Source: a virus. Taken from it: DNA of 12,093 nt. The notes below the pieces were generated by a model. The model was not told where the DNA came from. It did not search any database and was given only the letters and a program-made list of their open reading frames with translations. Positions 1 to 12,093 of the stretch are shown piece by piece. The translations under genes and the position numbers were made by a program. Within the stretch, counting starts at the first letter, position 1. Each line of letters begins with the position of its first letter. The stretch lies in the IMG/VR virus record IMGVR_UViG_3300012992_000322. The stretch is one strand, 5' to 3'.

Positions 1-15
1 CTCCCCCCCCCTCTG

Positions 16-42
16 AAAAAAATGCCCCCCAAAAATGGGGCA
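16..42 (-). terminator. Outward-facing intrinsic terminator at the left terminus
   Basis: Mirror of 12052..12078. The minus strand reads TGCCCC-8 nt loop-GGGGCA followed by T7. On the plus strand the hairpin is followed by A-rich sequence, so it can act only in the outward direction. Confidence 0.45.
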
Positions 43-142
43 AAAATTTAACCAAAAATTTGTACAAAATTTTCAACAAATTTGTGTCAAAAAATTTATA
101 CAATTTTTCAACGAAAATTTTAACGTGAAAAGTGTGTAAAAA
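16..142 (-). ncRNA. Candidate ITR-encoded small RNA, left copy (about 125 nt from the proximal promoter, about 270 nt if started at the distal promoter near 286)
   Basis: Delimited only by the predicted promoter and terminator. It has no SD or credible ORF. The function (a pRNA-like packaging RNA?) is speculation. Confidence 0.25.
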
Positions 143-148
143 ATTTGA

Positions 149-177
149 ATGATAACACGTGTAATTTATTGTGTCAA
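149..177 (-). promoter_or_regulatory. Outward-facing sigma-A-like promoter in the left ITR (terminus-proximal copy)
   Basis: Mirror of 11917..11945. The sequence is identical because it sits in the duplicated 115-bp module. Confidence 0.4.
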
Positions 178-292
178 AATTTATACAAAATTTTCAACAA
201 ATTTGTGTCATAATTTTCAACAAATTTGTGTCAAAAAATTTATACAATTTTTCAACGAAAATTTTAACGTGAAAAGTGTGTAAAAAATTTGA

Positions 293-321
293 ATGATAAC
301 ACGTGTAATTTATTGTGTCAA
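293..321 (-). promoter_or_regulatory. Outward-facing sigma-A-like promoter in the left ITR (distal copy): TTGACA-17 nt-TGtTATCAT on the minus strand
   Basis: Mirror of 11773..11801. It has a consensus -35, a 17-nt spacer, a TGn extended -10 and a 5/6 -10 (TATCAT). Confidence 0.4.
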
Positions 322-344
322 AATTTGTGTCAATAATTGTGTCG
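313..344. promoter_or_regulatory. Iteron-like array: TTGTGTCA, TTGTGTCA, TTGTGTCG starting at 313, 325 and 337 (exact 12-bp phasing) at the inner edge of the left ITR. Further TTGTGTCA copies lie at 82, 169, 203 and 226.
   Basis: The 8-mers and their spacing were read directly from the sequence. There are seven copies per 373-bp ITR. Any role as a protein-binding site is inference. Confidence 0.45.
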
Positions 345-444
345 ATAATTAGTAGAAAAGTTGAACGTGTGAATGTGTTTCTACTATATAAATATGTAAA
401 ATAGTGAAAATGAAAATTACATAAAAAAATTTTCAAAAAAACTA

Positions 445-473
445 TTGACAATAGTTTCTATTCATGATAGAAT
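445..473 (+). promoter_or_regulatory. Left-end inward promoter: TTGACA (445..450)-17 nt-TGaTAGAAT (465..473), preceded by an A/T-rich UP-like tract
   Basis: It has a consensus -35, a 17-nt spacer, an extended -10 TG and a 5/6 -10. It lies just outside the ITR and upstream of the first gene. Its upstream context AAAATTTTCAAAAAAACTATTGACA is paralogous to 11296..11322. Confidence 0.65.
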
Positions 474-540
474 ATATACAGTTACATAAGGTAACACAAA
501 CTTGTTAAAAAATAAAAAATATGAAAGTGAGGAAATTAAA

Positions 541-897
541 GTGAGTATTGCAAGCAAGTACAACAAAAAGGTGAATGTTTTTACATTCTCAATTCCAAAA
601 GATTTTGAATATCGTTCTTTAGCTGATTTGTTCAACAATAACGGTAAAGAACACGTGTACAAAGTTCGTGCAGTTTACATTAACAAAAAGTCACGTTTTG
701 GTGAAAGCCCTGTTGTTGCAACTGATGATTGTTTGGTAAATCTTCCACAACATTTGACAGATGTAGCACGTGAAATTATGCGTGATGAAGAAACAGTAAA
801 TGCTATCAATGACGGTAAGTTTGGTTTTACAATTTATCCATACGAAACAAAAAATAGAAAAGCACTTTGTTATTCTGTAAATTGGGTTGATTGCTGA
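541..897 (+). CDS. Small early protein (118 aa), possibly an OB-fold ssDNA-binding or other DNA-binding replication accessory protein
   Basis: The ORF is open from TTG 502. The conserved RBS GAAAGTGAGG (522..532) sits 8 nt upstream of in-frame GTG 541, so 541 is the preferred start. It is the first gene after the early promoter and is followed by a terminator. Its size matches the phi29 p5 class. The functional call rests on position and size only. Confidence 0.6.
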   Translation: MSIASKYNKKVNVFTFSIPKDFEYRSLADLFNNNGKEHVYKVRAVYINKKSRFGESPVVATDDCLVNLPQHLTDVAREIMRDEETVNAINDGKFGFTIYPYETKNRKALCYSVNWVDC

Positions 898-916
898 TTA
901 TTAACATACGGTGCAA

Positions 917-942
917 GGGGTAACAACTTGTTACCCCGTTTT
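917..942 (+). terminator. Intrinsic terminator or attenuator after the first gene
   Basis: GGGGTAACAA / TTGTTACCCC inverted repeat (917..937) followed by GTTTT. The T-run is short, so termination is probably partial. Confidence 0.5.
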
Positions 943-962
943 AATTAGAAAAGAGGAGTAAC

Positions 963-1181
963 GTGATAAAAAACGTAGGTAATTTTTGCAAGGATTTTAG
1001 AAGGAATGTTTTAAATAAAACTTTAAATGAAATTTGTAAAGATATTGAAATAAAACCAAAAACTCTTTCCGCATTTGAAAATGGTAGGGCAAATAATATT
1101 AAATATTTGTTTTTATATTATAATTCATGCAATGATGAACAAAAAGAACTTTTTGTAAGGGGGGTTTTTGAATGTCAGTAA
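963..1181 (+). CDS. XRE-family helix-turn-helix transcriptional regulator (72 aa)
   Basis: GTG start with the AAGAGGAG RBS just upstream. The segment LNKTLNEICKDIEIKPKTLSAFENGRANNI fits the Cro/CI-type HTH pattern (hydrophobic helix, turn, S-x-x-E-N-G-R). It overlaps the next gene by 10 nt. Confidence 0.6.
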   Translation: MIKNVGNFCKDFRRNVLNKTLNEICKDIEIKPKTLSAFENGRANNIKYLFLYYNSCNDEQKELFVRGVFECQ

Positions 1182-10446: not shown

Positions 10447-11299
10447 TGATGTTTTAGCACTAAAATTAGTTTACAATATTCAAAATGAAATAGATGTTGA
10501 ACAATCATATAATAAATTGATTAAAATGTGTGAACATATTGTAAAATGGTTTTTGCGTAAATATACCCCTATTATTCTAAAGTACGATTTAATTTATGAT
10601 GATGTGAAACAAGAAATGTATATAAGGTTATTACAAGCAGTTAAAAGTTGCCCCGTTAATTGTAAAAATTTTTATAATTGGTTAATGCCACATTTACGGG
10701 GTAGTTGTTTAAACTATTTCAAGTTTAATACTAATAGAATTACACCATATAGCAAAAACAAAGAAAAACGATTAGAAGAATTTAAAAGTTTTTCGTTAAA
10801 TAATAATATCAATGAAGAAAATGAATATCTTGATTTGCTGGCATATAATGATAGTTCTATAAATGATTTTCTTGACCATGATTATAACAAATATATCTAT
10901 GCAAAATTAAAAGGTTTTTTGTATTATCGTTTTGAAAATATAAATGTTGATTTATATTTTGATTTTTATAAATTAACTTTTAATGAATTAGAACATAAAT
11001 ATAAAAAACCGATTTTAAATATTATGCGTTACTGTACATTTATTACAACCGTTCTAAAAACTGATTATGATTTTAAAATATTTTGTGAAAAGTATTTAAA
11101 AGAAATTATAACTGAAAGACGTTTTAAACAATGGGAATATCAAAATAAAATTAATGGTAAAATTGATGTTACACACCTTTTAAATGATGAAATAGTAACA
11201 AATTTTTCACATACTTCAATATTAAATTTTGAAATTGGTAAAGATGTAAAAATACATAACTATTTTCGTGTACGTTTTCCACAACAAAATTTAATATAA
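10433..11299 (+). CDS. Divergent sigma-70 family (ECF/group-4-like) factor, 288 aa
   Basis: YDDVKQEMYIRLLQAVKSCPVNCKNFYNWLMPHLRGSCLNYFK aligns by eye with ECF region 2 (e.g. AEDIAQEAFIRAYVNIDSFDINRKFSTWLYRIATNLTIDRIRK). A possible region-4 HTH lies around LTFNELEHKYKKPILNIMRY. The ORF is open from TTG 10403, but the GGGGGG SD (10422..10427) favours ATG 10433. Confidence 0.5.
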   Translation: MKILDDVLALKLVYNIQNEIDVEQSYNKLIKMCEHIVKWFLRKYTPIILKYDLIYDDVKQEMYIRLLQAVKSCPVNCKNFYNWLMPHLRGSCLNYFKFNTNRITPYSKNKEKRLEEFKSFSLNNNINEENEYLDLLAYNDSSINDFLDHDYNKYIYAKLKGFLYYRFENINVDLYFDFYKLTFNELEHKYKKPILNIMRYCTFITTVLKTDYDFKIFCEKYLKEIITERRFKQWEYQNKINGKIDVTHLLNDEIVTNFSHTSILNFEIGKDVKIHNYFRVRFPQQNLI

Positions 11300-11316
11300 A
11301 ATTTTGAAAAAAACTA

Positions 11317-11345
11317 TTGCATTTTTCTATTATAAGTAGTATAAT
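11317..11345 (+). promoter_or_regulatory. Right-end promoter: TTGCAT (11317..11322)-17 nt-TATAAT (11340..11345)
   Basis: It has a 5/6 -35, a 17-nt spacer and a perfect -10. Its upstream context AAAATTTTGAAAAAAACTATTGCA is nearly identical to that of the left-end promoter. Confidence 0.65.
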
Positions 11346-11400
11346 AAAGACAGTTAGAAATGTACTAACAAATGAACAAAGAAAAGTGAGGTAAATTATT

Positions 11401-11667
11401 ATGACAAACACAATTAAAATCAAAGTACCTGTAACTACTGTAACAACTGCCATAATGTATAACGATAATACGTGCGAAATTAAAACATTTGATTTATATG
11501 GTAAATACAGTAATGCAAGTGCAAAAAAGTATTTTAAAGAAAACCCCATTGACAATGCAAAAAATGTTACTATTCTTGATACTGTAAAGAATGTTATAAA
11601 CTATGAAATTGAACTTGAAAAACTTTTACCCGTACTTGGTGAAAGTAGTAAAGTAACTGTTGAATAA
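11401..11667 (+). CDS. Hypothetical 88-aa protein in its own promoter-terminator cassette
   Basis: RBS AAAAGTGAGGTA sits 7 nt upstream of the ATG. A dedicated promoter lies upstream and a terminator downstream. No family was recognised. Confidence 0.65.
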   Translation: MTNTIKIKVPVTTVTTAIMYNDNTCEIKTFDLYGKYSNASAKKYFKENPIDNAKNVTILDTVKNVINYEIELEKLLPVLGESSKVTVE

Positions 11668-11691
11668 TAACAAAATAATAACACACGAAAC

Positions 11692-11717
11692 ACGTTGTAG
11701 AAATACAACGTTTTTTA
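11692..11717 (+). terminator. Intrinsic terminator of the last gene, abutting the right ITR
   Basis: ACGTTGTA-GAAA-TACAACGT forms an 8-bp stem with a GNRA-type loop, followed by a T-run (11711..11716). Confidence 0.75.
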
Positions 11718-11749
11718 TTGTTCACACGTTCAACTTTTCTACTAATTAT

Positions 11750-11781
11750 CGACACAATTATTGACACAAATTTTGACACAA
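11750..11781. promoter_or_regulatory. Mirror iteron-like array in the right ITR (CGACACAA, TGACACAA, TGACACAA at 12-bp spacing)
   Basis: Reverse complement of 313..344. Confidence 0.45.
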
Positions 11782-11801
11782 TAAATTACACGTGTTATCA
11801 T
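11773..11801 (+). promoter_or_regulatory. Outward-facing promoter in the right ITR (distal copy): TTGACA (11773..11778)-17 nt-TGtTATCAT (11793..11801)
   Basis: Read directly from the sequence. The -35 hexamer is the reverse complement of part of the TTGTGTCAA motif. Confidence 0.4.
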
Positions 11802-11916
11802 TCAAATTTTTTACACACTTTTCACGTTAAAATTTTCGTTGAAAAATTGTATAAATTTTTTGACACAAATTTGTTGAAAATTATGACACAAATTTGTTGA
11901 AAATTTTGTATAAATT

Positions 11917-11945
11917 TTGACACAATAAATTACACGTGTTATCAT
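11917..11945 (+). promoter_or_regulatory. Outward-facing promoter in the right ITR (terminus-proximal copy)
   Basis: Identical sequence 144 bp downstream of the distal copy, within the second copy of the 115-bp module. Confidence 0.4.
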
Positions 11946-11951
11946 TCAAAT

Positions 11952-12078
11952 TTTTTACACACTTTTCACGTTAAAATTTTCGTTGAAAAATTGTATAAAT
12001 TTTTTGACACAAATTTGTTGAAAATTTTGTACAAATTTTTGGTTAAATTTTTGCCCCATTTTTGGGGGGCATTTTTTT
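11952..12078 (+). ncRNA. Candidate ITR-encoded small RNA, right copy (about 125 nt, or about 270 nt from the distal promoter near 11808)
   Basis: Bounded by the predicted promoter and terminator. It has no SD or plausible ORF and is AU-rich with several local palindromes (ACAAATTTGT, TTGTACAA). Expression and function are unverified. Confidence 0.25.
12052..12078 (+). terminator. Outward-facing intrinsic terminator at the right terminus
   Basis: TGCCCC (12052..12057), an 8-nt loop, GGGGCA (12066..12071), then T7 (12072..12078), 15 nt from the genome end. Confidence 0.45.
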
Positions 12079-12093
12079 CAGAGGGGGGGGGAG

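Follow-up and report, generated by a model that had tools for sequence, protein, structure and literature searches.

The record IMGVR_UViG_3300012992_000322 of the IMG/VR virus collection is a stretch of 12,093 nt (hereafter the window) that begins and ends with the same long inverted terminal repeat (ITR) and encodes several proteins resembling those of phage phi29. This arrangement raises the question of whether so small a molecule represents the whole genome of a tailed phage that replicates by protein priming, and to which of the phi29-like lineages it belongs. An initial annotation, made by reading the sequence, had described it as a miniature phi29-like phage whose linear genome is complete and bounded by ITRs. 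Our results support this description, with the reservation that the genome is complete or nearly so, about 9 nt being probably missing from each end, and we are confident that the window constitutes the essentially complete, linear, double-stranded DNA genome of an uncultured gut podophage of the Astrithrvirus/Phanie-like clade of miniature phi29-like phages.

A repeat search recovered the perfect 373-bp ITRs exactly where the initial annotation had placed them. The left arm (1..373) and the right arm (11721..12093) are 373 nt each, 100% complementary, and reach the first and the last base of the window; perfect arms of this length cannot be explained by chance. Each arm carries a 144-nt tandem unit repeated ~1.9 times (56-326, 97% matches; TRF) and six TTGTGTCA(A) motifs. 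The left arm, the presumed replication origin, has a run of C at its extreme tip, and the right arm holds outward promoter-like sites and a terminator-like hairpin. Between the arms the unique region has a promoter at its start and a terminator at its end, no open reading frame (ORF) is truncated at either window end, and the gene layout keeps to the ITR boundaries. Furthermore, genomes of this type recur as free-standing ~12-kb contigs: across hundreds of related contigs, and 16 contigs assigned to bins of metagenome-assembled genomes (MAGs), we found no case in which one was embedded in a longer contig.

Under translation table 11 the window holds 14 plus-strand ORFs that occupy ~90% of its length, the minus-strand ORFs being short and nested. 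The same 14 plus-strand genes appear in the public gene calls of conspecific contigs, in agreement with the number and orientation given by the initial annotation. Most ORFs are preceded by a strong GGAGG-type Shine-Dalgarno sequence. The GC content is 29%, and the GC skew is positive in all sliding windows but the last, at the right end. We rejected genetic code 4, the Mycoplasma-type code brought to mind by the low GC content and by Mycoplasma phage P1, since the TGA codons that close ORF1, ORF11 and ORF12 fall where a gene would sensibly end and are followed in each case by a Shine-Dalgarno sequence and a start codon or by an overlapping start; all 14 ORFs are uninterrupted under table 11.

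The replication and packaging genes provide the firmest link to phi29. ORF4 (1762..3918, 718 aa) encodes a protein-primed-type family-B DNA polymerase (PolB), which matched PF03175 (E 4.8e-11) and phrog_1907 (E 7e-80); the family profile, built as for the other genes from relatives, matched phi29 gp2 with an E value of 1e-18. In the alignment with gp2 all of Exo I-III, YxGG, motifs A, B and C and KxY found their counterparts, and sequence was present at TPR1 and TPR2, so that the complete set of protein-primed motifs claimed for this protein stands; the Asp of Exo II is replaced by Glu in ORF4 and throughout the clade. ORF5 (3958..5061, 367 aa) corresponds to the gp16-type DNA packaging ATPase (PF05894, E 7e-21; family profile vs phi29 gp16, E 2e-35), ORF6 (5080..6255, 391 aa) to the gp10-type connector or portal (PF05352, E 4.5e-19; family profile vs phi29 gp10, E 4e-36) and ORF9 (7379..8557, 392 aa) to the phi29-type, HK97-fold major capsid protein (MCP; PF25622, Phi29_MCP, E 2.2e-52; family profile vs the phi29 capsid protein, E 8e-17). 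The profile searches that the initial annotation had suggested as a check, carried out with Pfam and PHROGs, therefore confirmed its polymerase, ATPase, portal and capsid assignments. A 60-nt tandem repeat, with 3.1 copies at 6061-6247 (TRF), codes for the acidic, ETEE-rich tail at the C-terminus of the connector; conspecific contigs carry two copies of it or one, yielding connectors of 371 and 351 aa, respectively.

ORF3 (1172..1759, 195 aa) stops 2 nt before the start of the polymerase gene. It shares 45-51% identity with its positional equivalents in Astrid, Phanie, DU_PP_III and K58 g2, and a survey by tblastn across 111 related loci (numbered with the prefix L) placed members of its family at this position in 58 of them, with T78-S79-T80 nearly invariant. 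As the matching genes of Astrid, DU_PP_III and Phanie are described as terminal-protein (p3) counterparts (PMC11476376), position and homology to the relatives' candidates make ORF3 a candidate terminal protein.

We consider it very probable, by analogy, that this genome replicates by protein priming. Following the phi29 paradigm, the terminal protein, with ORF3 as the candidate, would be covalently attached to each 5' end and would prime synthesis by PolB from origins inside the identical ITRs. DNA of unit length would be packaged by the gp16-type ATPase, by way of the gp10-type connector, into a small capsid of the phi29 type built of ORF9, and the products of ORF10 and ORF11, forming a two-gene knob, would make up a minimal tail. 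Transcription would proceed rightward from a sigma-A/sigma-70-type promoter immediately interior to the left ITR and would meet hairpin terminators behind ORF1, ORF9 and ORF14, and the putative regulatory products would be the helix-turn-helix (HTH) protein ORF2, the winged-helix protein ORF12, the sigma-70-like ORF13 and, possibly, a p6-like ORF14. For genomes of such a size a T=3 capsid has been predicted, a geometry still unobserved among isometric tailed-phage capsids (PMC7762592), which makes phages like this one candidates for it.

The tail genes agree with this scheme in part. ORF10 (8632..9069, 145 aa) appears to correspond to the N-terminal part of gp9, the tail knob/tube protein of phi29: its family HMM matched gp9 with an E value of 4.5e-6 in a small local database and with an hhalign probability of 45%, and a search of the whole PDB returned three matches only, the C1 knob (4eo2, E 1.4e-3), the phi29 knob (5fb4, E 0.046) and 8egs_Y (E 0.21), deposited as 'Major tail protein'. 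ORF11 (9072..10088, 338 aa) is a distal knob protein of the Astrid/Phanie gp10 family, sharing 31-33% identity with the C-terminal 220-245 aa of the large knob protein gp10 of Astrid, Phanie and DU_PP_III, and its AF2 model (pLDDT 77) matched the BFVD model of the Astrid protein with an E value of 1.7e-25. It represents a short allele. Most of its homologues are 550-556 aa long with both ends conserved, those of L007 and L008 have 552 aa, and other short alleles have 328-352 aa; since the long homologues share both ends with ORF11, an internal deletion of ~214 aa is implied. The gp9-like tail knob of the initial annotation is encoded by two genes, of which only ORF10 resembles gp9 by sequence, weakly but in a specific manner. 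The splitting of the knob into two genes has already been published for this clade (PMC11476376).

The place of the window among known phages was examined with its capsid protein. A tblastn search of 50,697 phage records matched 23 of them, led by genomes of 10.4-11.9 kb with 54-58% full-length identity: the Salmonella phages S.Kent 1-2-1, Astrid, astrithr and assan, Acinetobacter phage Phanie, Enterobacter phage Entb_47, Shigella phage vB_SHGBLB0004, Pectobacterium phage DU_PP_III, as well as Vibrio phage K58 g2. Amedibacillus phages, together with 12-13-kb contigs from human faeces, formed the next tier, at 28-34% identity. The window is collinear with DU_PP_III, Phanie, Astrid and K58 g2 over nine of its 14 genes, ORF2-6 and ORF8-11, at 26-62% amino acid identity, in the shared order HTH protein, terminal-protein candidate, PolB, ATPase, connector, ~185-aa protein, MCP, small knob and large knob. 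Identity to the isolates amounts to 53-58% for PolB, 57-62% for the ATPase and about 54-58% for the MCP (Phanie: PolB 58%, MCP 57%). The differences lie elsewhere. The isolates have genomes of 10.4-11.9 kb, terminal repeats of 84-219 bp (171 bp in Phanie), a GC content of 32-40% and a distal knob protein of 570-855 aa, whereas the window has 12.1 kb, 373-bp ITRs, 29% GC and a distal knob protein of 338 aa. It also contains two genes beyond those of the isolates, ORF1 and ORF7, and at the right end, where the isolates carry a CHAP lysin, a small transmembrane protein and leftward genes, it has ORF12, ORF13 and ORF14 instead.

At the nucleotide level a megablast of the whole window against the same phage records yielded a single match of 225 nt at 77% identity, while protein identities to the isolates lie at 24-62%. 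Taking as the genus criterion at least ~70% genome-wide nucleotide similarity to Astrithrvirus astrithr (PMC11476376), this lone match places the window outside the genus Astrithrvirus. A review of more than 2000 phi29-like entries defined a cluster 23 with genomes of 11-14 kb, a two-gene knob and no fibres (PMC11476376). The window has the size, the collinear core from the terminal-protein candidate to the large knob, the split knob and the absence of fibre genes that characterize the clade, though not its CHAP lysin; judged by these sequence comparisons, it is a member of the Astrithrvirus/Phanie-like clade, in the sense of cluster 23, above the genus level.

Two expectations of the initial annotation did not hold in this context. 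It had placed the genome near the lower size limit of tailed phages, with Mycoplasma phage P1 as the only comparable case. Although astrithr (11.6 kb) and P1 (11.7 kb) have been named the smallest isolated tailed phages (PMC7762592), isolates of 10.4-11.9 kb are already classified, and relatives of 11-13 kb exist in the hundreds: a scan of IMG/VR detected at least 283 related stretches, and nearly all of the 80 that were kept measure 11-13 kb, most with ITRs (up to 523 bp) and with an MCP 63-97% identical to that of the window. Nor is the length of the ITRs exceptional, given those of P1 (350 bp) and of these IMG/VR relatives. Likewise, the gene order is indeed unlike that of phi29, as stated, but it is the standard one for the clade and not novel.

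Phi29 shares with the window homologous PolB, ATPase, connector, MCP and N-terminal knob part, a terminal-protein gene directly 5' of the polymerase gene, and a linear genome with ITRs. In contrast to the window, it has 19.3 kb, a 6-bp ITR, early genes on the opposite strand and no sigma-like gene; its pRNA, gp11, gp12 appendages, gp13, holin and endolysin were not detected in the window. Several Salasmaviridae traits are likewise absent, as the window gave no pRNA hit, measures 12.1 kb instead of ~16-21 kb, has a 373-bp ITR and a single direction of transcription, and carries no appendage gene. P1 (Delislevirus) resembles the window in genome size (11.66 kb) and ITR length, and its PolB and packaging ATPase matched the window family profiles (E 3e-15 and 1e-10, respectively); however, neither its capsid (E 0.017) nor any other P1 protein gave a significant match, its genes form two divergent transcription blocks, and it uses genetic code 4; it is not a close relative. 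The proteome comparison proposed in the initial annotation thus recovered homology of PolB and ATPase to phi29 and P1, but the closest phages are isolates of the Astrithrvirus type and not P1. In passing, orf3 of P1 (L113, 3322-4494), annotated as 'possible terminal protein', is the protein that matched the gp16-type ATPase profile (E 1e-10), and its annotation may be wrong.

Within the gut, the window belongs to a well-populated lineage; related 11-13-kb contigs of uncultured gut and rumen phages occur in IMG/VR, ENA and Logan. Two IMG/VR records, L007 and L008 (IMGVR_UViG_3300045988_157664 and _162493), carry all 14 genes at 77-99% amino acid and ~85-95% nucleotide identity, and the gut and rumen contigs L010, L012 and L014 have an MCP 72-74% identical to that of the window. 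Contigs L087-L092, from independent gut assemblies and all shorter than the window, belong to the same species (~99.6% nucleotide identity). The exact capsid protein was found on 18 further gut-metagenome contigs and the exact ORF14 protein on 146 contigs; these identical proteins and near-identical contigs indicate that the species was already present, unannotated, in public assemblies. As miniature phi29-like phages of 10-13 kb have been isolated, classified and reviewed (PMC11476376, PMC7762592), the genome as such is not new; its value resides in being a well-resolved representative, with full ITRs, of the low-GC gut branch of the clade.

Several observations weigh against the scheme proposed above. 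The protein-linked 5' end is extrapolated from phi29, and the ORF3 family showed no detectable similarity to gp3 when its profile was compared with phi29 gp3 and P1, with the whole PDB and by hhalign; the terminal-protein assignment of the initial annotation accordingly stands on position and on homology to the relatives, and not on likeness to gp3. No window ORF matched the phi29 gp11 lower collar by profiles or hhalign, and a scan of the window with Rfam at permissive E values returned only chance hits for pRNA. When ORF11 was considered as a possible counterpart of the gp9 C-terminus, its AF2 model gave no meaningful PDB match, the solved phi29 gp9 included. Domain and profile scans revealed no tail fibre or appendage gene among the 14 ORFs, and neither Pfam, PHROG and NCBIfam scans nor reading of the sequences uncovered a lysin domain, a holin or a transmembrane segment in any of them. 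As no gp11, pRNA, fibre, lysin or holin was found, the model of the virion and of lysis is incomplete. At the termini, the outermost 41 nt are witnessed by the window contig alone, and the two ITR copies of a de Bruijn assembly are not independent of each other. Finally, all cultured members of the clade were recovered on Gram-negative hosts, which renders the Gram-positive host proposed below an indirect inference.

The missing lysin directs attention to the right end. In sibling genomes the lysin gene lies directly after the large knob gene, with a glucosaminidase domain plus CW_7 repeats in L010 (10545-11189) and L017 (12280-12888), CHAP plus CW_7 in L012 (10962-11570), CHAP alone in L014 (10727-11215) and Peptidase_M15 in L064 (12096-12506). 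In the window (10075-11299), L007 and L008 this slot is filled by ORF12 and ORF13. ORF12 (10075..10446, 123 aa) is a winged-helix DNA-binding-like protein; its match to the Cdc6_C winged helix had an E value of 3.4e-5 and scored 24.2 bits against a cutoff of 25.1, and among the 111 loci the gene is confined to the window species, L007 and L008. ORF13 (10403..11299) has 298 aa from a TTG start or, counted from the ATG at 10433, 288 aa. It is a divergent protein of the sigma-70 family, which matched Sigma70_r2 (PF04542), the model of the region that binds the -10 element and core RNA polymerase, with 25.7 bits, over the cutoff of 24, and TIGR02937 with an E value of 5.5e-9; Pfam and NCBIfam searches gave no match by sequence to region 4, the part that recognizes the -35 element. 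The mean pLDDT of its AF2 model is 62; the values exceed 70 in the N-terminal 100 residues, and the C-terminal 70 residues are poorly modelled. The top 50 Foldseek matches of this model in the PDB were all sigma factors, among them region 2 of sigma-E (4lup_C, TM 0.61, rmsd 3.4 Å), and the alignments to full sigma factors spanned 240-270 columns with low TM scores. A search of 5.8 billion proteins retrieved 15 clusters of this family, all on contigs of ~1-13 kb, and 14 matches were found among 1.84 billion representatives; eight of nine remote members tested matched Sigma70_r2. We found no relevant report of sigma factors in phi29-like gut phages in the literature. The initial annotation had placed regulators at the right end, and the genes there are indeed regulator-like; what needed correction is that one of them is a sigma-70-like protein occupying the lysin slot of the siblings. 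That a sub-lineage exchanged its lysin for a winged-helix and a sigma-like protein raises the question of how the host is lysed, and whether a helper is needed.

The alternative that survives best follows from this question. The phage could be a helper-dependent, satellite-like element of the Phanie type, which copies its DNA and forms heads unaided but infects only by docking on the tail of an unrelated helper, lysis being left to the helper or the host. Such a reading would refine the interpretation of the window as a genome of this clade and would not exclude it. According to the passage on it in PMC11476376, which cites Pourcel et al. 2024, the clade member Phanie depends on a helper, the myophage Aci01-1. 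Like Phanie, the window has the split knob and no fibre or appendage gene, and it additionally lacks a lysin or a transmembrane protein, with ORF12 and ORF13 in the slot of the sibling lysins. Phanie's membership of the clade, together with the absence of fibre, lysin and holin, makes helper dependence a live possibility. However, it has been demonstrated for one isolate only, and astrithr and Astrid are treated as non-satellite phages (PMC7762592; bioRxiv 10.1101/2025.06.18.659913). Moreover, the missing lysin is negative evidence, ORF1, ORF7 and ORF8 carry no assigned function, the lineage is abundant alone in many gut samples, and no candidate helper was identified. We therefore regard dependence on a helper as unlikely, though deserving of attention. 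More doubtful still is its extension to a lysin-less, fibre-less 'tail-pirate' that would replicate and package its own DNA, rely on a co-infecting helper for adsorption and lysis, and have replaced the ancestral lysin with ORF13 and ORF12 so as to reprogram transcription of the host or helper. If this were true, helper-dependent miniature podophages would be widespread in Gram-positive gut bacteria and not a single Acinetobacter curiosity.

A different objection is that assembly created the ITRs artificially, the actual molecule being circular or the contig a chimeric inverted duplication. A single de Bruijn path yields both arms, the last 41 nt have no second witness in exact-pattern scans of IMG/VR and of metagenome contigs, and the ITR length of related contigs (L007-L111) often equals an assembler k value (141, 127, 119, 99 or 55). 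Yet an ITR of length k at both ends is expected from a true ITR longer than k, which leaves such a signature in the unitigs; it follows that the ITR lengths catalogued for the clade are mostly lower bounds set by the assembler. Independent contigs also speak for the arms: L087 carries 332 nt of the left one (positions 42-373), L088, a separate assembly, has 146 nt of the ITR at each end, and the inner 60-146 nt of the right ITR were recovered in L087-L091. Among the isolates, the annotated terminal repeats of 219 bp and 84 bp were derived experimentally, and Phanie has one of 171 bp. In nine relatives from IMG/VR and MAG contigs (L015, L021, L022, L026, L029, L044, L051, L066 and L101) Illumina adapter remnants (...GCTCTTCCGATCT) directly adjoin an AAAGGTA(T/C)AC terminus, an indication that these are true physical DNA ends, and 16 contig ends start exactly at the AAAGGTA terminus. 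Considering in addition how well the gene layout fits the ITR boundaries, we judge an artefact very improbable. It can be noted that unremoved adapter thus persists in public assemblies, and that the terminal AAAGGTA reiteration recalls the AAAGTA of phi29.

Equally improbable is a linear plasmid, phage-plasmid or defective remnant that forms no particles: some database phi29-like sequences are phage-plasmids with partition genes (PMC11476376), and the window combines several DNA-binding regulators with an absence of lysis genes, but its head, packaging and knob module is complete, intact and evidently conserved, profile scans of the 14 ORFs found no ParA, toxin-antitoxin, integrase or Rep genes, length is held at 11-13 kb across hundreds of relatives, and close relatives were isolated as virions.

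Returning to the window as a phage genome, its exact ends can be estimated from the relatives. The termini of DU_PP_III, Phanie and L011 read GGGxxATxC (GGG(N)nAT(N)C), and next to this comes a C-run that is conserved in the window. The window starts in this C-run, nine alignment columns inside the GGG termini of its relatives (window 1-15 and 12079-12093; L001, L002 and L011, 1-25). This offset suggests that ~9 nt of each end went unassembled and are probably absent from the window.

With respect to the host, the 29% GC content, the strong Shine-Dalgarno sequences, the TTGACA/TGnTAxxAT promoters and the CW_7 repeats of sibling lysins point to a low-GC Gram-positive gut bacterium as the probable host. 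The CW_7 repeats, which are of a Gram-positive type, suggest that this branch as a whole infects Gram-positives, unlike the cultured members of the clade. The 16 related contigs found in MAG bins all stood alone, none being integrated; the bins themselves were contradictory (Clostridia, Gastranaerophilales, Prevotella, Christensenellaceae and others), hence they were not used to assign a host.

The putative transcription signals are compatible with the rightward scheme. An early promoter-like site on the plus strand (445..473), TTGACA-17-(TG)TAGAAT, is situated just inside the left ITR, 5' of ORF1, with 11 of 12 matches and an extended -10; an equivalent inward promoter was found in L007, L010, L012, L014, L016, L046, DU_PP_III and Phanie. 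Plus-strand terminator-like hairpins follow ORF1 (917..937), the capsid gene (8573..8606, a strong one with a 14-bp stem and then a T-run) and ORF14 (11692..11711, just before the right ITR). A second plus-strand promoter-like site, TTGCAT-17-TATAAT, was read directly from the sequence 5' of ORF14 (11317..11345), with a further site predicted nearby, and the upstream sequence AAAAAAACTATTG is common to the ORF14 and ORF1 promoters. No tRNAs are present in the window.

ORF14 (11401..11667, 88 aa), the small protein encoded at the right end, matched phrog_6370 'dsDNA binding protein' with an E value of 7.5e-4. Its top match, albeit a weak one, was phi29 gp6 (HMM E 0.012; hhalign probability 7%), and these similarities suggest that it is possibly a p6-like dsDNA-binding protein. 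Homologues were identified by tblastn in L096 and L097. At the same right-end position, L010, L012 and L014 have ORFs of 99-105 aa whose N-terminus looks similar by eye, although tblastn was negative.

At the other end, the gene that comes first behind the early promoter is ORF1 (502..897), which has 131 aa if read from a TTG start and 118 aa if read from the ATG at 541. It had tblastn matches in 89 of the 111 loci, is absent from the isolates of Gram-negative hosts, and had no match in Pfam, PHROG, NCBIfam or the PDB; a role as single-stranded DNA-binding protein was considered and found no PDB or PHROG support. ORF2 (963..1181, 72 aa) is a small XRE-like HTH protein with an HTH_19 match (E 3e-4) under the Pfam cutoff, and shares 34-36% identity with the gene that comes first in Phanie and DU_PP_III. 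Two further genes lie between connector and capsid. ORF7 (6298..6786, 162 aa) is restricted to the lineage, with matches in 16 loci only and weak, sub-cutoff Pfam matches to coiled-coil-type families; from its position we infer a scaffold role, and neither its family profile nor hhalign detected similarity to phi29 gp7. ORF8 (6793..7356, 187 aa), with matches in 46 loci including Astrid, DU_PP_III and K58 g2, is presumably structural. By its position it may be the small lower collar of the clade, for which the PDB and PHROG searches gave no match.

The ITRs contain a further set of signals that point outward. The right arm has two promoter-like sites (11773-11801 and 11917-11945; TTGACA-17-(TG)TATCAT) and, close to its tip (12052-12071), a terminator-like hairpin, with mirror copies of all of them in 1-373. 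The predicted outward RNAs would be ~125 and ~270 nt long, and their fold z-scores lie around -3.4 to -3.5. The place and orientation of this unit are reminiscent of the phi29 pRNA gene; as an analogue of pRNA the transcript was set aside, its fold being an AU-rich palindrome and not a three-way junction. The outward sites are genuine matches to promoter and terminator patterns, and are kept only in L007, plus one site in Phanie.

On the minus strand, an ORF of 128 aa (11169-11555), very hydrophobic and antisense to ORF14, was set aside as a hidden holin. It is probably spurious, a wobble-sharing antisense frame of ORF14 with no Shine-Dalgarno sequence; its length varies in L007 and L008, and counts by codon position do not tell one frame from the other.

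Palindromes of the CACGTG type occur repeatedly in the ITR regions of the window (150-165, 294-309 and 361-380; ACACGTGT), and the ends of distant relatives (L047, L065, L102 and L105) contain a palindrome of the same type, TGTTTCACGTG(A/G)AAC. A similar element, ACGTGAAAC, is located 5' of the ATPase gene (3923-3934). The palindromes may represent a conserved protein-binding site.

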